Shown here: piece by piece, positions 25,640-30,306 of the stretch
How the letters are laid out: each line of letters starts with the position of its first letter
Numbering within the stretch: the stretch's first letter is position 1
From: a virus
Taxonomy: Duplodnaviria; Heunggongvirae; Uroviricota; Caudoviricetes
IMG/VR virus record: IMGVR_UViG_2778261056_000004
Location: 1 to 42,285 of that record
Length of the DNA stretch: 42,285 nt
Reading direction: 5' to 3' (one strand)
Notes under the pieces: model-generated
Told to the model about the DNA's origin: nothing
The model's input: only the letters and a program-made list of their open reading frames with translations
The model's database searches: none
Position numbers and translations under genes: made by a program

Positions 25640-26692
25640 TTATTCCCCTGCCAACGCCCGTATTTCCCCCAACGTCTGATTAAACCTTTCCTCTTCGAGT
25701 TCAACGCCAATAGCCTGGCGGCCAAGTTCCAGCGCGACTTTCACGGTCGAACCGGACCCCATAAAGAAATCAGCCACCACATCACCAGGCTTACTGCTGG
25801 CGTTGATGATCTGCCGCAACATGTCAGCGGGTTTTTCGCATGGGTGTTTACCTGGATAAAACTGAACGGGTTTATGTGTCCAGACGTCGGTATAAGGAAC
25901 GGATACGGAAACAGAGAAATGTCGCCGAAGTGATTTGTACTCTTCGAGCAGCTCTGAATACTTGCGATTCAACGAATGCCACATAGCCACCAGCTGGTGG
26001 TGTGGTGTTGCCAGTTCGCCGTTCTGGTTCTTTTCGTTGGCTACCTGCGTGAAAAGGGACTGAAGCTTCCGGTAGTCTGATTCATTCGGTAATTGCCACT
26101 GGCTACCGCTGAACCAGTGAGACACCATGTTCTTCTTTCCAGTCGCATCGGCTATTTGTTTTGAGGATATGCCAAGCGCTTCACGTGCATCCCGGAAATA
26201 AGAAATTAGGGGAGTCATTACATGCTGCTTCAGCTCGCTTCCCTTCTCAGCGTACCCATCGCTCTTTGGTTTATACGGCCCTTGGTAATGCTCAGCGAAA
26301 AGGATGCGCTCTGTTGCAGGGAAGTAAGAACGCAGGCTCTCTTTATTACAGCCATTCCAGCGGCCCGACGGTTTAGCCCAGATGATATGGTTCAGGACGT
26401 TGAACCGCTCACGCATCATGATCTCAATGTCTGCTGCCAGACGGTGACCGGAGAAAAGATAAAGACTGCCGGCAGGTTTAAGCACTCGCCAGAATTGTGC
26501 GAGGCACATATCAAGCCAGCGAAGATAATCCTCATCCCCTTTCCACTGATTGTCCCAGCCGTTGGGTTTCACTTTGAAGTACGGCGGATCCGTGACTATC
26601 AGGTCAATGGAGTTATCAGGGAGAGTGGCGATGTATTGCAGGCTATCAGCGTTGACTAACTCAACACTGTTTATATTTACAGTATTTTTCAT
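25640..26692 (-). CDS. orphan DNA methyltransferase (N6A/N4C, beta-class), 350 aa
   Basis: DPPY (IVTDPPYF) lies near the N-terminus and the AdoMet motif FFMGSGST near the C-terminus. No nuclease gene is adjacent. Confidence 0.8.
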   Translation of the reverse strand: MKNTVNINSVELVNADSLQYIATLPDNSIDLIVTDPPYFKVKPNGWDNQWKGDEDYLRWLDMCLAQFWRVLKPAGSLYLFSGHRLAADIEIMMRERFNVLNHIIWAKPSGRWNGCNKESLRSYFPATERILFAEHYQGPYKPKSDGYAEKGSELKQHVMTPLISYFRDAREALGISSKQIADATGKKNMVSHWFSGSQWQLPNESDYRKLQSLFTQVANEKNQNGELATPHHQLVAMWHSLNRKYSELLEEYKSLRRHFSVSVSVPYTDVWTHKPVQFYPGKHPCEKPADMLRQIINASSKPGDVVADFFMGSGSTVKVALELGRQAIGVELEEERFNQTLGEIRALAGE

Positions 26693-26829
26693 AGATCAAT
26701 AAGCGTAACTCTGATAGGCTCTCTTTGCTTTTGCGCTAAAGCAATGGGCCTTGGTTAGCTTGTGACCTGAAAGCATGAGCTGATGGCTGGTGGGTGCTCC
26801 AACATCCACCAGCCGCCCATTTTCACAGC

Positions 26830-26886
26830 AAAATACCTCCGAAATGGAGGTGCGAAGGCATAAAAAAACCCCGCTTAAGCGAGGTT
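26830..26886 (-). terminator. two tandem intrinsic terminators after the HEPN-like cassette
   Basis: The minus strand has CCUCGC-UUAA-GCGGGG followed by U7, then CCUCC-AUUUC-GGAGG followed by UAUUUU. A further 9-bp hairpin without a U-run lies at 26785-26814. Confidence 0.65.
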
Positions 26887-26901
26887 ATTTCGAATAGATA
26901 A

Positions 26902-27306
26902 TCAAGCAGCAGGTTCGGATGGATAAACCTGCTCATACATCTGCTGAAGGGTGTCAATAGCTTTGTTAGCCATTATCAATATAGCTTCCGCATCAGCCTT
27001 ACTTAAAGTTCTATCAAGCTCGTAATCTGCCCATTTACGTCGGGTATGCAAATGTCTCAGCATTGTTCCCATAGAAATGAGTTTCATTTTTTCAAACGGC
27101 TCATTTCCTTTTAACCATGCATCATTTGTAAGATAGTCGCGAACAGCTTGGTGTGACGACTTGTTTGGGCATTTCTCAAGCTTATCAAGCGTTTCATGAT
27201 AAACTCCATAATACGCTCGACCAATGGCGTTTCTGTAACCGATTTCATCGTTGTGAGAAATGCATTTACCAGCAAAAACAATAAAATCTTTCCCCGATAC
27301 GCTCAT
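26902..27306 (-). CDS. HEPN-like (UPF0332/COG1895-type) protein, 134 aa
   Basis: Signatures are YRNAIGRAYYGVYHETL (the sRaYYa.fH pattern) and LRHLHTRRKWADYE (the R..aDY pattern), followed by a C-terminal helix (ADAEAILIMANKAIDTL). The start overlaps the upstream stop by 1 nt. Confidence 0.55.
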   Translation of the reverse strand: MSVSGKDFIVFAGKCISHNDEIGYRNAIGRAYYGVYHETLDKLEKCPNKSSHQAVRDYLTNDAWLKGNEPFEKMKLISMGTMLRHLHTRRKWADYELDRTLSKADAEAILIMANKAIDTLQQMYEQVYPSEPAA

Positions 27307-28061
27307 CAGTAAATCCCTCTTTTTTCATCGCTTTGAAACCAGGATGTAAAAGGGCTGTTCCGATAACTATCATCTGAGAGCAAAACCAACAGTTCCATGT
27401 TCATTTCAGCTAAAACCTGCGGATCAGCAGTTTGGGCTCTAACGATGAATGCATTGTCATCATCTCCACCAAGATAATAGCTAACACTTGAACAGTTAAT
27501 ACCGCGCTTGTTCGCAATCTCTTCAGCTTGATCGCAAAGGGCTTCTAGTTCTCGAGAAGAAAGACGGGTAGCGTTTTTGAAATCAACAATCTGTTCAGCC
27601 ATATAATTTCCCTGATTGATTATATCCTCTCGCTCTTGGCCATCATAAAGAGCAGCCATTTTGAGGGAGAACTTTTTAACCAACTTGTCGTTGCCGATAC
27701 AAAATGCAGCGTTTCTTGCTACAAGCCTCAGTTCATGTGAAGGGAAAAGCTCAACTATTCTAAACAACTCAACGCGATGCTCATAGTTATGAGCCGAACG
27801 AGAAAGATACGCCAAGTAGTTTTGTGCGATCGTTGGACTCCCAGAGCTCATCGCGTCTTTGAATAAACGTACTGCATCAGAGTGACGCCCGAGAGTTCCA
27901 TTAAGCCATGCATACGCATGTGCGCGCTCACTTATTGGAAGTTTAGCAATGTCGCGCTCAATTTCCGCAATAGTGTCTGTATCCGGGACTTCTCCCTTCT
28001 GGAAGTAATCGAGGATTGTTGCAAGCAGTTCTTGTTCTTTTGACTCAGGCTGTCCTGACAT
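27306..28061 (-). CDS. hypothetical 251-aa protein, helical repeat-like N-terminal half, unknown C-terminal domain
   Basis: ATG at 28061. AT-rich codon usage. Translationally coupled to the HEPN-like gene. I see no nucleotidyltransferase or other catalytic motif. Confidence 0.5.
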   Translation of the reverse strand: MSGQPESKEQELLATILDYFQKGEVPDTDTIAEIERDIAKLPISERAHAYAWLNGTLGRHSDAVRLFKDAMSSGSPTIAQNYLAYLSRSAHNYEHRVELFRIVELFPSHELRLVARNAAFCIGNDKLVKKFSLKMAALYDGQEREDIINQGNYMAEQIVDFKNATRLSSRELEALCDQAEEIANKRGINCSSVSYYLGGDDDNAFIVRAQTADPQVLAEMNMELLVLLSDDSYRNSPFTSWFQSDEKRGIY

Positions 28062-28212
28062 AATTTTCCCGAAGAAAACCAAATTCTGTATGTTTTCAAT
28101 AGCTTCACTGGATAGATTTTTATATTGCTGTCATCAGTATTGAAGCTTTTACGGGATTGTACAGGACCATCAGCGTTCTACTTGTGCATAAGAATTTAAT
28201 AAACCTACAGAC

Positions 28213-28286
28213 TTATCCACAGAAAAAAGAGTTATCAACAAAAAAAGTTATTCACAACTTAACTAATAGCAAAATATTGTTGATAA
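28213..28286. promoter_or_regulatory. cluster of four DnaA-box 9-mers
   Basis: Plus strand: TTATCCACA (28213-28221, perfect consensus), TTATCAACA (28232-28240) and TTATTCACA (28248-28256). Minus strand: TTATCAACA (28278-28286). All lie in the AT-rich spacer upstream of the cassette. Confidence 0.5.
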
Positions 28287-28413
28287 GCTGTGCGTAATTA
28301 TCATATCCATCAAACTTACGCACATTAGAGCCTTGTGTTGCCTATCCATCGTTTTTTCCTATCAAAACGAAACGACATGCTTTTCTGCGATTAAAAAAGT
28401 ATTCCGCAAAATT

Positions 28414-28438
28414 AAAAAACCCGCTCACTGGCGGGTTT
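28414..28438 (-). terminator. tR'-like intrinsic terminator downstream of the late promoter
   Basis: The minus strand reads CCCGC-CAGUGA-GCGGG followed by U6, roughly 40 nt downstream of the candidate PR' start site. Confidence 0.7.
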
Positions 28439-28471
28439 ATATACTGTTGGCAACATATCAAATTAGCTTCA

Positions 28472-28500
28472 AATATCGCTTATTTTGTTGCATTTTGCAA
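28472..28500 (-). promoter_or_regulatory. candidate late promoter PR'
   Basis: TTGCAA-17 nt-GATATT on the minus strand, directly downstream of Q and upstream of the terminator. Confidence 0.4.
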
Positions 28501-28530
28501 GCCTGATTGAAGACGTTAGTGAAATTTACT

Positions 28531-29223
28531 TCACATTTCTACCACTTTCACTTCTTCATACTCTTCGTACCGCGCCAGGCTTTCACGTAACGCCAGGCTG
28601 TCCATTTCCACGAAAGCTGCTTTAAATGCTGCCCAGTGAGCAGCGTATACCCTGAGCCAGGTTGAACGCTCCACGCTCACCATGCGGGCCAGTGCCGCCC
28701 CCGCATATTCCTGGTACGTATCGTTATTGCGTGATGCTGCAACTTCCTGGGCCGCGAGCCAGACAAGCCCCACTAATTTTTTTGTGACTCTGTCCTGGAG
28801 CTTCTTACGGCCCTGCTGATGCTGAAACTGTGCCCAAACGTACTGGCACATCAACGTCTGGTACCGGAAAGACAGATCATATCCATAGCAATACCTGACC
28901 CACGCCTGCAGATGCTCTCCAAGGCCATTTACCGAGCGGCGCCACGCAGAACTCGCAAACTCGGCATCCTTCATAGGGGGTAATGGGCGTCGACGGCTTC
29001 TTGTCTCCAGAACATAAAGCGGAGTGGCCAGAGTTTTTACAACCTTCGATCCACAACCTTCCCCACCCTCCATGACGATTTCAGGATGGTGCCGAGGGTA
29101 TTTATTCTTATCTGCTGGTGGATGCTCACTGAACGCCTGCAGCTGTCCTTTTGTCGATCCTGATAAATCCGCCAGCGCGCGGCGCAGTTCAATCCGCGTA
29201 TATTCCAGTTCTTGTAAATTCAT
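28531..29223 (-). CDS. late antiterminator Q (Phage_antitermQ-type), about 230 aa
   Basis: Positioned directly before the PR'/tR' pair. The N-terminal ELRRALADLSGSTKGQL and the overall pattern recall the Q family found in enterobacterial prophages. The start is uncertain (ATG 29223 or TTG 29244). Confidence 0.65.
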   Translation of the reverse strand: MNLQELEYTRIELRRALADLSGSTKGQLQAFSEHPPADKNKYPRHHPEIVMEGGEGCGSKVVKTLATPLYVLETRSRRRPLPPMKDAEFASSAWRRSVNGLGEHLQAWVRYCYGYDLSFRYQTLMCQYVWAQFQHQQGRKKLQDRVTKKLVGLVWLAAQEVAASRNNDTYQEYAGAALARMVSVERSTWLRVYAAHWAAFKAAFVEMDSLALRESLARYEEYEEVKVVEM

Positions 29224-29244
29224 TATGCTCAGCGCTCCATACAA

Positions 29245-30306
29245 TTACGCTTTTGTTATTACGCCGATCGCCAGCGCTCGATTCATAAACCGGAATAGCA
29301 GCTCCAGCTGGGTACCGTGTTTTTTCTCGAACGCTGCAACATCAGCATGTAATTTGTCGTGACACTCTCTGCACAGAGGGATCACAAACAAATCGTGGGC
29401 TTTAGTGGCGGTACCGCCCATGCCGTGACCAATGACATGGTGTGGATCATCCGCTGGCCGCCGGCAACCTTCACAGGGCTGGGTTTTAACCCACCGGGTA
29501 TAGTCCTCATTCACCCACCTGCGGTGTTTTGGGCGCAACATGAAGGATTCAGGGGATTCAGGATCCGCATGCAGAGCCAAAACCTGTGGCTGGTCATAGG
29601 CCACTTCCTGATTTGTTCCATGCTTTAATTGCGCAGCCGTGACCGCAGGGGTGACCTTCTTCTGCAAAATGCTTTTTGCCGGGGGCATCGGCACAATGTC
29701 ACTTTCGCGATAAACGGATAAAAACGGCTCATCCGGTAAGCGAAGCGCATGCTGGGCCATCCTTTCCGTGATTGCATCAGCAATGCCTGAGTAAACGGCC
29801 CACCAGCACAATTCACCGAGGGATAGTTCACGCTCGTTGTTGTAGCCAAGCGAAGACAGGATGGAACTGATCAGCCAGCTAATGAGATTACGGCGGGCCA
29901 GTTCTGCCAGCGCCGCGGTGGTTTGCTCGCGCAGCTGGTTATCGCAATGCCAACAGAGCAACATTGATCCGGGGGGATGTCGCATTGTTACCAGCTCAGG
30001 ATGGTGATAATCAGTGTGCGGGTACTGGCATTCCTTCACGTTACGCTCTAACCAGGATTCCAACCCGGACAAACCGCCTGCTGCACGAATAACTCTCTCG
30101 TCGGTGAAGAATTCCTCGAGGGACTTATCTTCTGCCAGCGGCTGCCTGGCATCAGGGACGAGCCCTGACGGAAGCCCAGCCATGCTTTTTGGCTGAGGCT
30201 CCACCAGCACACGCCCCTGTTGAAACAGAGACATCAGTTCGCTACCCGGCTTTAACACCACAAGCCCCAGGCGCGGAACAGTCTCAGCTGTAAACAGTCC
30301 TCTCAC
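29245..30306 (-). CDS. DUF968-family protein (E. coli YdfU-like) with C-terminal HNH-like zinc motif
   Basis: The C-terminus carries CEGC...HHVIGHG...CRECH..LH. Typical Nin-region location. The GTG start overlaps the upstream stop (GTGA). Confidence 0.6.
   Translation of the reverse strand: MRGLFTAETVPRLGLVVLKPGSELMSLFQQGRVLVEPQPKSMAGLPSGLVPDARQPLAEDKSLEEFFTDERVIRAAGGLSGLESWLERNVKECQYPHTDYHHPELVTMRHPPGSMLLCWHCDNQLREQTTAALAELARRNLISWLISSILSSLGYNNERELSLGELCWWAVYSGIADAITERMAQHALRLPDEPFLSVYRESDIVPMPPAKSILQKKVTPAVTAAQLKHGTNQEVAYDQPQVLALHADPESPESFMLRPKHRRWVNEDYTRWVKTQPCEGCRRPADDPHHVIGHGMGGTATKAHDLFVIPLCRECHDKLHADVAAFEKKHGTQLELLFRFMNRALAIGVITKA

Follow-up and report, generated by a model that had tools for sequence, protein, structure and literature searches.

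A two-gene cassette of temperate phages couples an AF0298-type HEPN protein to a TPR-like partner: probably a toxin-antitoxin-like or anti-phage module without a name

We analysed a stretch of DNA of 42,285 nt, hereafter the window (IMG/VR record IMGVR_UViG_2778261056_000004, positions 1 to 42,285; Caudoviricetes), and found in it a two-gene cassette that is most likely a mobile, self-contained accessory insert (moron) of temperate phages. Its downstream gene, B, encodes a HEPN domain protein of the AF0298/UPF0332 (PF05168, 'HEPN-T') clade. The protein encoded by the upstream gene, A, combines TPR-like repeats with a small KH-II/RimP-N-like alpha/beta domain and is not an enzyme by the tests run. 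The pairing of A and B is obligate, and the pair moves between accessory slots of temperate phages. Taken together, the pair is probably an unnamed toxin-antitoxin-like or anti-phage module. If this is true, MNT-associated HEPN toxins, which are very common, have a new class of partner, and the antitoxin or regulator position can be filled by a non-enzymatic repeat protein. The AF0298/UPF0332 clade with its alternative active site, biochemically uncharacterised so far, would also gain a tractable model in E. coli, Klebsiella and Enterobacter, and the Q-to-lysis slot of lambdoid prophages, more familiar as the site of Shiga toxin genes, a further type of cargo.

Insert boundaries and gene order

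All genes of the cassette and its flanks are located on the minus strand (Table 1). In BLASTN comparisons with phage Flotzy (L003) and E. coli ECONIH5 (L002), the alignment breaks at 26853/26854 and 28410/28411; the insertion site is empty in Flotzy and is occupied by other cargo in ECONIH5. The insert is bordered by late genes on one side and by Q with its terminator on the other. This terminator, a tR'-like hairpin followed by a T-run (28438-28417), is kept in cassette-free Flotzy, and the cassette begins directly past the T-run; we presume the label tR' for it from position and analogy only. An earlier note on this DNA, made by eye, had placed the genes between tR' and the late genes. The position stands, with the refinement that a DNA methyltransferase gene comes next and is followed by the holin and lysozyme genes.

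The same note had described two translationally coupled, AT-rich genes, and both properties were found again: A and B overlap by 1 nt (TGATG), with a Shine-Dalgarno sequence (AGAGGGA) ahead of B, and the GC content is 0.39-0.47 in the genes versus 0.52-0.60 in the flanks. The leader upstream of gene A is even lower in GC (0.33), in agreement with the AT-rich upstream region that had been noticed, but it measures 349 bp instead of ~330 bp. Two tandem terminators had been ascribed to the cassette. Both hairpins exist, but only the first (26886-26867), which falls within the insert boundaries, belongs to the cassette, whereas the second (26851-26835) is part of the phage backbone. Overall, the terminator scan returned eight terminator-like sites in the 2.2 kb scanned, with 1.8 expected. 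The cassette is regarded as a discrete insert based on its own leader and terminator, its deviating GC content and a site that is empty in Flotzy or differently filled in ECONIH5. Of the features that characterise a moron, we found the insert boundaries, the empty site, the drop in GC content and the cassette's own terminator; as a promoter, there is the candidate TACAAT element only.

Table 1. Positions of the cassette, its parts and its neighbours in the window
Feature	Position	Strand	Description
N6/N4 DNA methyltransferase gene, backbone, downstream neighbour	25640-26692	-	PF01555 E 6e-44; PADLOC MTase_II E 3e-146
Second terminator-like hairpin, backbone	26835-26851	-	terminator scan; also in cassette-free Flotzy and ECONIH5
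Whole inserted cassette	26854-28410	-	1,557 bp; leader, gene A, gene B and terminator
Intrinsic terminator of the cassette	26867-26886	-	8-bp stem, T7 run; 15 nt past the B stop codon
Gene B	26902-27306	-	134 aa
Gene A	27306-28061	-	251 aa; ATG at 28061
AT-rich leader	28062-28410	-	349 bp, 33% GC
Candidate -10 element TACAAT	28156-28161	-	putative, from leader alignment and sequence
Cluster of seven DnaA-box-like 9-mers (TTATNCACA, at most 1 mismatch)	28183-28324	both	3 perfect
DnaA-box-like 9-mers 1-4	28183-91, 28213-21, 28232-40, 28248-56	-, +, +, +	
DnaA-box-like 9-mers 5-7	28278-86, 28289-97, 28316-24	-, -, +	
tR'-like intrinsic terminator after Q, backbone	28408-28438	-	8-bp GC-rich stem and T-run; terminator scan
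Q antiterminator gene, backbone, upstream neighbour	28531-29244	-	PF06323 E 3e-40; phrog_304 E 4e-70

The two proteins and their pairing

The B protein of the window on its own gave no Pfam match. The profile of its family matched the solved HEPN proteins 9xbd and 9xbc at E-values of 3e-5 and 1e-4 (and 2hsb weakly, E 1.7), while a text search of the literature on these two structures yielded no relevant paper. PF05168 was matched by 8 of the 24 members of the B family (best E 1.5e-5) and PADLOC PDC-M05B likewise by 8 of 24 (best E 8.7e-5), and B homologues carry the JGI name 'UPF0332 family'. An AF2 model of B (pLDDT 93.6) consists of five helices that form an all-alpha bundle. Its best Foldseek matches were 2hsb, 2q00, 1ufb, the HEPN domain of sacsin, 1wol, 4nqf and 7ae8, with a TM score of ~0.5 and weak E-values (≥0.06), as is usual for small helical bundles. 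The assignment of the small protein to the UPF0332/COG1895-type HEPN domains, made in the earlier note from short signatures, was thus supported by family profiles, names and fold.

Twelve residues of B are conserved in at least 95% of 41 diverse copies (E21, R25, N26, R30, Y32, Y33, H37, H52, Y58, R90, D94 and Y95), and in a set of 13 sequences that includes more distant copies all of them are invariant except N26, R30 and Y58. At the end of helix 3, where the Rx4-6H motif is expected, B reads R90-K-W-A-D94-Y95, and no His is found 4-6 residues past R90 in any of the 24 close members. The earlier reader was therefore right in seeing no obvious canonical motif, but the one stretch that had seemed to fit it, RAYYGVYH, was ruled out because it sits in helix 2 and represents a UPF0332 family signature. 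In AF0298-like HEPN-T domains, the Arg of the motif is kept, Asp stands in place of His, an alternative conserved His is contributed by an insert between helices 2 and 3, and helix 2 bears a conserved acidic residue; the alternative active site of these domains is itself a prediction (PMC3710099). Judged by its sequence, B agrees with this definition, with R90, D94, the alternative His52 and the acidic E21 in helix 2. H52 opens an inserted helix (52-62), and E21 opens helix 21-42. The puzzle of the missing His is thereby resolved, since exchange of H for D together with an alternative His is a known variant of the AF0298 type. Twelve conserved polar residues in a protein of 134 aa argue for catalysis over mere scaffolding, and B is probably an RNase effector or toxin. 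Our literature search found no report of RNase activity for the AF0298-type clade.

For A, no family match was obtained in Pfam, NCBIfam or PADLOC. A fold search revealed a TPR-like helical repeat (residues ~8-165), followed by an alpha-beta-beta-alpha-beta domain (~169-244) that resembles the N-terminal domain of RimP and the KH-like domain of ribosomal protein S3. This corresponds well to the helical repeat-like N-terminal half and the unassigned C-terminal domain recognised before. The earlier failure to see a nucleotidyltransferase motif also holds up: neither a Pol-beta fold nor a GS...DxD motif is present in A, and profile searches placed the protein in no known antitoxin or nucleotidyltransferase family. 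Pfam, NCBIfam and the fold search likewise returned no DNA-binding domain of the HTH, RHH or AbrB type, and no obvious lability signal was seen. Therefore, A is not a textbook type II antitoxin. In an alignment of 62 sequences (16-48% identity), solely TPR-type structural residues are conserved; an enzymatic function of A is unsupported, as the broad family keeps no polar catalytic set. We propose that A may be a non-enzymatic partner that inhibits, senses or adapts. A profile search of the genome contigs with the A alignment gave no match.

The two genes are strictly linked. At all 50 loci that were reached via B, a homologue of A is located directly upstream on the same strand, mostly with an overlap of 1-4 nt, and distant A homologues are followed by the same HEPN family in 5 of 5 cases. 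An MNT adjoins the pair at none of the ~60 loci. The two most distant HEPN loci (L060 and L061) have upstream partners without demonstrable homology to A. The two proteins co-diverge (r = 0.93 for pairwise distances), and both genes are under purifying selection (dN/dS 0.02-0.09 against diverged copies). Since, in addition, homologues could be traced down to 16-30% identity, we consider A and B real coding genes.

The cassette is carried by 12 of 5,426 complete E. coli genomes, and a B-type HEPN protein occurs on at least 1,000 contigs. The homologues fall into roughly 70 clusters for A and 106 for B. The pair was found in the Q-to-lysis slot, in the nin region, in gaps of the tail module and at prophage ends, where it adjoins either tail-fibre genes, in convergent orientation to the late genes, or the integrase gene. 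In Gilliamella it occupies a bare chromosomal site with no phage genes within ~5 kb. Among the loci examined, none was seen inside a classical defence island. Such varied accessory positions suit conflict genes expressed in the lysogen rather than a fixed step of the lytic cycle.

Related systems and possible functions

The earlier note had allowed for the pair being an already named system. PADLOC-DB v2.0.0, NCBIfam, Pfam and PHROGs contain no named defence system that matches it: in PADLOC, A has no match and B has only weak ones (PDC-M05B and HEPN_IX). The accessions of the pair were not found in a literature search. The missing PADLOC-DB v2 model means that the pair is unnamed and says nothing on defence. 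UniProt assigns automatic, domain-level labels ('HEPN domain-containing protein' and 'Tetratricopeptide repeat protein'); elsewhere the proteins are listed as hypothetical (RefSeq) or of 'unknown function' (PHROGs). DefensePredictor DS-28, which combines a HEPN protein of 163 aa with a protein of 252 aa, was rejected as a possible identity (hhalign probability 0.1% for both proteins), and neither HEPN nor TPR appears in a domain-centric discovery paper (PMC13069673).

B is most closely related to the toxins of MNT-HEPN modules. As in those modules, two genes form a tightly coupled operon in which the second encodes a small HEPN protein of the nucleotidyltransferase-associated clades, but the upstream gene of the cassette encodes a TPR-like protein of 251 aa without nucleotidyltransferase fold or motif. 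PDC-M05 consists of a nucleotidyltransferase and a HEPN protein (PMC12988326). Membership of the pair in the MNT-HEPN group (type VII HepT/MntA; PDC-M05) was rejected because no nucleotidyltransferase was detected by sequence, fold or neighbourhood. Y95 of B is invariant and adjoins the motif, and no modifying enzyme is encoded. MNT-HEPN toxins are reportedly AMPylated at the Tyr next to the motif; as the pair comes without a nucleotidyltransferase, neutralisation of B by AMPylation is not expected. With the AF0298/UPF0332/COG1895 proteins (2hsb), B shares the fold, the retained Arg, the exchange of H for D, the alternative His and the 'RaYY' of helix 2. This clade is described as standalone or MNT-linked, whereas the B sub-family goes with one specific non-MNT partner and with temperate phages.

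Two prophage systems offer functional parallels. Tha of Staphylococcus aureus prophages is a HEPN RNase that aborts infection and is restrained by the phage-encoded inhibitor Ith (PMC11087260). The combination of a prophage HEPN protein with a protein inhibitor is the same, as is the problem to be solved, namely to avoid self-activation during induction. However, Tha has ~300 aa and a canonical motif (R265/H270), sequence kinship with B is not expected, and Ith is a small Xis-like protein transcribed in antisense, whereas A is a co-transcribed TPR protein. HepS of the Salmonella prophage Gifsy-1 is an anticodon nuclease that causes abortive infection once a phage structural protein has activated it (PMC13043305). 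Like B, this HEPN effector occupies an accessory slot of a lambdoid prophage, but it acts as a single protein with no partner gene and has a canonical Rx4-6H motif (R100-H105). Both are precedents for prophage HEPN effectors that can abort infection. Repeat proteins have been described as HEPN partners before: AbiU2 occurs with Sel1 repeats, and LA2681 with TPRs, fused or in an operon (Anantharaman et al. 2013). The likeness to our cassette is one of design, a HEPN nuclease coupled to an alpha-helical repeat protein; these are other HEPN families with canonical motifs, and their pairings are predictions.

The position of the cassette also has a well-known counterpart. The lambdoid slot downstream of Q and tR' is the site of the Stx toxin cargo. 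Like this cargo and other lambdoid morons, the cassette is foreign in composition, brings a terminator of its own, lies between Q/tR' and the lysis genes and is absent from sister phages. It differs in that its cargo is not a virulence factor and is also found in other slots and outside of phages. The adjacent, co-oriented genes, their translational coupling and their joint inheritance resemble type II toxin-antitoxin loci; what A lacks is the DNA-binding, autoregulating domain of such antitoxins.

We give about an even chance to the reading that the cassette is a toxin-antitoxin-like abortive-infection or defence module, for which we infer RNase activity, toxicity, neutralisation by A, a trigger, a promoter and a defence phenotype. 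B would be the effector, most likely a dimeric RNase, with an active site built from R90 and the alternative His52 (plus E21, D94 and Y95) in place of Rx4-6H. A would take the place that the MNT antitoxin has in classical MNT-HEPN pairs. Translational coupling would ensure that both proteins are made in fixed proportion, and A would bind the HEPN protein and keep it inactive. Release or activation of B could follow once the TPR surface of A meets a trigger, for example a protein of an infecting phage, or once A is lost. Given its location between Q with its terminator and the late genes, the cassette would use its own leader for expression in the lysogen and be transcribed by read-through of Q-modified polymerase after induction.

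Other explanations have to be weighed against this defence module. The pair could be a plain addiction-type toxin-antitoxin system that stabilises the prophage or island without any role in phage defence: B would be toxic, A would neutralise it by binding, and loss of the element would kill or arrest the cell. The layout, in which a larger upstream gene is translationally coupled to a small HEPN gene, fits this explanation, as do the kinship of B with the toxins of MNT-HEPN toxin-antitoxin pairs and the presence on integrated elements, including island ends next to integrases and, once, alone in the Gilliamella chromosome. But A is large (251 aa), well folded and of the TPR type, with neither an autoregulatory DNA-binding domain nor a sign of lability. 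TPR domains are typical ligand- or protein-binding sensors. We therefore regard pure addiction as unlikely, although the line between toxin-antitoxin systems and abortive infection is blurred, and the two explanations overlap accordingly.

Since the cassette is co-oriented with the late operon in the window, a role in lytic growth has to be considered as well, with the pair made from the Q-dependent late transcript and not acting in the lysogen. It might then process or degrade RNA for host takeover or counter a host defence. In the window and in many relatives, the pair lies co-oriented between Q and the lysis genes, in a slot shared with the Stx toxin genes. Q-modified polymerase reads through terminators in lambda and would pass that of the cassette. 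This explanation is made quite improbable by pairs that run convergently to the late genes, adjoin integrases, or lie in the nin region or in a phage-free chromosomal context, by the cassette's own leader and terminator, and by the close relatives Flotzy and ECONIH5, which manage without it. A further possibility is that the HEPN domain has lost its nuclease activity and, in a non-catalytic pair with the KH-II/RimP-like domain of A, binds RNA or ribosomes and thereby modulates translation. The absence of the canonical Rx4-6H motif from B, the resemblance of the C-terminal domain of A to those of RimP and S3, and the fact that certain HEPN domains may be non-catalytic (PMC3710099) point in this direction, and the conserved polar residues of B in the opposite one; we consider it very unlikely.

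In its widest form, the defence module would be an unnamed but widespread immune module of temperate phages in Enterobacterales and other Gammaproteobacteria. Regulation of an AF0298-type HEPN protein could have passed from the nucleotidyltransferase to a TPR/KH-like protein, this TPR protein could be the direct sensor of an invading phage protein, and the HEPN protein could cut RNA via a non-canonical Arg/His/Asp/Tyr active site. An array of seven boxes over the promoter would further link transcription to DnaA in the E. coli lineage, so that the amount of the system would follow the replication-initiation state of the cell. That all four parts hold together is doubtful.

The leader

Blocks of the leader are conserved even in comparison with the leader of locus L022, to which it is 74% identical in the alignment, and it presumably holds the promoter and control sites of the cassette. 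A simple consensus promoter scan called no sigma-70 promoter on the gene strand of the leader; both the cassette's own promoter and its expression in the lysogen are therefore putative. A variable spacer separates the candidate -10 element TACAAT, part of a conserved block, from the DnaA box TTATGCACA (28191-28183), which lies 21 nt further upstream. The element has no recognisable -35 partner and was not called by the scan; transcription from the leader promoter is predicted to start near 28149. In the leader and at the 3' end, all Rfam matches to a structured RNA or type III antitoxin were below threshold (GcvB, for example, scored 25.6 bits versus a gathering score of 42), and no tandem repeats were found besides DnaA-box-like 17-mers.

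The DnaA-box-like sites in the E. coli-type leader form a cluster of putative boxes defined by sequence match. Should the array be functional, it would give a conflict module an unusual kind of regulatory input. Of the perfect TTATNCACA matches in the whole window, three out of four fall in this cluster, as do 7 of the 33 matches with at most one mismatch. The seven sites in the leader compare with 0.58 expected, and none of 5,000 dinucleotide shuffles of the leader reached this number. A copy of another chromosomal or plasmid DnaA-box region was rejected as the source of the leader, which among E. coli genomes is found solely together with the cassette. The cluster is not a trait of the whole family but limited to the E. 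coli-type leader; Pseudocitrobacter may have three boxes. Among related leaders, those of L019 and L021 contain seven DnaA-box-like sites each and that of L022 eight.

Boundaries and anatomy of the inserted gene pair

The earlier note had described a low-GC two-gene cassette between Q and the late genes, and gene calls, GC content and hairpins agree with this description. The two genes, here called A (upstream) and B (downstream, encoding the HEPN protein), and their surroundings are listed in the table. GC content drops from 0.52-0.60 in the flanking phage genes (backbone) to 0.39-0.47 in A and B and 0.33 in the leader upstream of A. The ATG of B is preceded by a good Shine-Dalgarno sequence and overlaps the stop codon of A by one base (TGATG). 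The hairpin after Q may be named tR' from its position and by analogy with lambda. Past the methyltransferase gene, holin and lysozyme genes follow.

Features of the A-B cassette and its flanks
Feature	Position	Strand	Remark
Q antiterminator gene	end at 28531	(-)	PF06323, E 3e-40
GC-rich hairpin and T-run after Q	28438-28417	(-)	terminator-like; backbone
Leader, 349 bp, 33% GC	28410-28062	(-)	
A, 251-aa ORF	ATG 28061 to 27306	(-)	
B, 134-aa ORF	27306 to 26902	(-)	
First terminator-like hairpin 3' of B	26886-26867	(-)	part of the cassette, from breakpoints
Second terminator-like hairpin 3' of B	26851-26835	(-)	part of the backbone, from breakpoints
N6/N4 DNA methyltransferase, 350 aa	25640-26692	(-)	first backbone gene past the cassette

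The 1.8-kb region was found in 12 of 5,426 complete E. coli genomes, always within a prophage and annotated as two hypothetical proteins; no E. coli genome had the leader but lacked the cassette. Phage Flotzy, with Q and methyltransferase genes 95-96% identical, has just 51 bp at the cassette site (L003 4162-4214), and E. coli ECONIH5 holds a different 159-aa gene there on the opposite strand (L002 4327-4806). This other gene and the near-empty site indicate that the Q-to-methyltransferase site is a cargo hotspot. Breakpoints relative to these two loci place the insert at 26854-28410; its 5' edge directly adjoins the T-run of the backbone terminator, and its 3' edge falls between the two downstream hairpins. 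Of the two tandem terminators proposed in the earlier note, only the first is the cassette's own.

Some minor observations concern the neighborhood. The 159-aa protein of ECONIH5 gave only a weak DUF1542 match. The methyltransferase is an orphan enzyme within the late operon and has a sub-threshold HTH_3 (helix-turn-helix) match at residues 167-197. Directly upstream of Q lies a gene for a DUF968 protein (29245-30306, minus strand) whose C-terminal part gave weak HNH-type matches below threshold; relatives from Morganella and Enterobacter show the same arrangement. In Rfam, GcvB was matched below threshold (25.6 bits, the gathering score being 42) at 26860-27028 on the minus strand, a stretch that includes the cassette terminator and the 3' end of B. 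This match is in all likelihood due to chance and owed to the terminator.

The HEPN protein and its partner

Searched as a single sequence, B had no match in Pfam or NCBIfam. The profile built from 24 homologues matched the solved structures 9xbd and 9xbc, both designated 'HEPN domain-containing protein' (E 3e-5 and 1e-4), and weakly the UPF0332 protein AF0298 (2hsb). PF05168 was matched by 8/24 family members, as was PADLOC PDC-M05B (8/24); PDC-M05 consists of a nucleotidyltransferase and a HEPN protein (PMC12988326). Several homologues carry the JGI label 'UPF0332 family', and the automatic UniProt name of B is 'HEPN domain-containing protein'. Its AlphaFold model (pLDDT 93.6) has five helices, and the closest structural matches are HEPN proteins, albeit with weak statistics. 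Family profile, PF05168 matches, labels and fold thus uphold the UPF0332-type assignment made from the sequence.

The canonical Rx4-6H motif is absent from B, and the end of helix 3 reads R90-K-W-A-D94-Y95. In AF0298-like HEPN-T proteins, the motif His is typically lost, with Asp instead in several cases; a second strongly conserved His, contributed by a segment inserted between helices 2 and 3, may restore an active site jointly with the motif Arg, and the conserved acidic residue, where present, is located in helix 2 (PMC3710099). B has exactly the motif variant described by Anantharaman et al. (PMC3710099), with H52 at the start of the inserted helix and E21 at the start of helix 2. Twelve residues are at least 95% conserved in 41 diverse copies (E21, R25, N26, R30, Y32, Y33, H37, H52, Y58, R90, D94, Y95), most of them invariant among the 13 most diverse sequences. 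RAYYGVYH, previously regarded as the only fit to Rx4-6H, was rejected as a catalytic motif, being the helix-2 signature of the AF0298-like clade. In the HEPN chains of 9xbd and 9xbc, the best solved relatives of B, the position aligned with Y95 is Tyr in one chain and Phe in the other (RSDYDL vs RSDFDL), which suggests that the depositors regard this Tyr as functionally important; no paper on either entry was found.

Protein A had no significant match in Pfam, NCBIfam or PADLOC and belongs to phrog_17809, annotated as of unknown function. AlphaFold predicts ten helices and, at residues 169-244, a domain of alpha-beta-beta-alpha-beta order (pLDDT 86.7), in agreement with the helical N-terminal half and the C-terminal domain anticipated before. 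A fold search in BFVD returned ribosomal protein S3, which we take to indicate a KH-II-like fold class. The structural matches included no nucleotidyltransferase, so the absence of such a domain, suspected from missing motifs, is borne out at both the fold and the family level. At 50% identity, the homologues from an exhaustive profile search form 71 clusters, with a length of 250-260 aa in nearly all cases. Across 62 of them (16-48% identity), only TPR-type structural positions remain conserved (A63, F67, N81, Y82, L86), with no conserved polar constellation left. From this conservation pattern, an enzymatic function of A is therefore very unlikely.

Conservation and genomic positions of the pair

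In all 50 loci found through B, including the most diverged (L015, L051/52, L053), the gene immediately before B is a co-oriented A homologue, and the two usually overlap by 1-4 nt. Downstream of distant A homologues, a member of the same HEPN family was found in 5/5 cases (E 1e-29 to 1e-46), so that the co-occurrence check suggested earlier found the partner kept from either side. Four still more distant HEPN matches each have a 243-292-aa gene directly upstream, recognizably A-like in two; for the upstream genes of the other two, L060 and L061, homology to A was not detected. These two loci, from Acinetobacter (L060 2621-3902) and a metagenome (L061 2731-3899), encode HEPN relatives at 26-29% identity, the most distant ones, and keep a 257-292-aa gene directly upstream, which reflects either extreme divergence or a partner that was replaced a second time. 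A gene for a minimal nucleotidyltransferase (MNT) was present at none of the examined A-B loci. The pairwise distances for A track those for B (r = 0.93, 820 comparisons), and dN/dS is 0.02-0.09 for both.

The pair lies between Q and lysis genes in E. coli, Morganella and Enterobacter; at prophage ends, beside and convergent to tail-fibre genes, in Erwinia and many IMG/VR viral contigs; and next to integrases in Pseudocitrobacter and a mutS-adjacent island. Other loci carry it upstream of ninG/Q, within tail modules or in an Arc/Mnt/Bro-N region. In Gilliamella spp. (L011-L013 7216-8402), it is located between frr and a putative transporter gene, and no phage genes were recognized within about 5 kb, indicating that the pair also exists outside prophages. 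Its upstream neighbors there are rpsB, tsf, pyrH and frr, as named from N-terminal sequences.

Proposed function and the DnaA-box-like array

Obligate synteny with translational coupling, foreign base composition, an own terminator and hopping between accessory slots fit a toxin-antitoxin-like conflict module of temperate phages. B is most closely related to the toxins of MNT-HEPN modules, in which an MNT serves as antitoxin; here an apparently non-enzymatic TPR protein takes that position. B could be a dimeric RNase with R90 and H52 in its active site. A would bind B and keep it silent, possibly doubling as a sensor that is released by a phage protein or lost upon shut-off of host gene expression. 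RNase activity, toxicity, A-B interaction, trigger and promoter are what we infer; HepS (PMC13043305) and Tha with its inhibitor Ith (PMC11087260) are documented prophage HEPN effectors and provide precedents. In rival readings, the pair would serve purely for addiction, act as a lytic accessory that is expressed late, or bind RNA without being catalytic.

UniProt already gives domain-level labels for these proteins. A match to a named system, which would have spoken against novelty, was sought in PADLOC-DB v2, NCBIfam, Pfam and PHROGs without success, and an accession-based literature search did not find the pair. The superficially similar validated system DS-28 proved unrelated. We class A-B as a HEPN toxin module whose partner belongs to a new class distinct from MNT. 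This is not conceptually surprising, since repeat-protein partners have already been predicted for other HEPN families. The pair is widespread in prophages of clinically relevant Enterobacterales, easy to test and informative on an uncharacterized HEPN clade.

The leader contains seven DnaA-box-like 9-mers (TTATNCACA, at most one mismatch) within 142 bp (28183-28324). The 42-kb window contains four perfect TTATNCACA matches, three of them in this stretch. When the leader was shuffled with its dinucleotide composition preserved, the expected count was 0.58, and seven boxes were reached in 0/5,000 shuffles. Related leaders contain seven (L019, L021) or eight (L022) such sites, the array being kept in L022 at 74% identity. 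Such clusters are confined to the E. coli-type leader; most other family members lack one upstream. Between the box at 28191-28183 and a conserved TACAAT 21 nt further downstream (28161-28156), the spacer is variable; judged from the sequence, this layout would fit a candidate DnaA-controlled promoter. One DnaA-box-like site covers the -35 region of the candidate TACAAT promoter.
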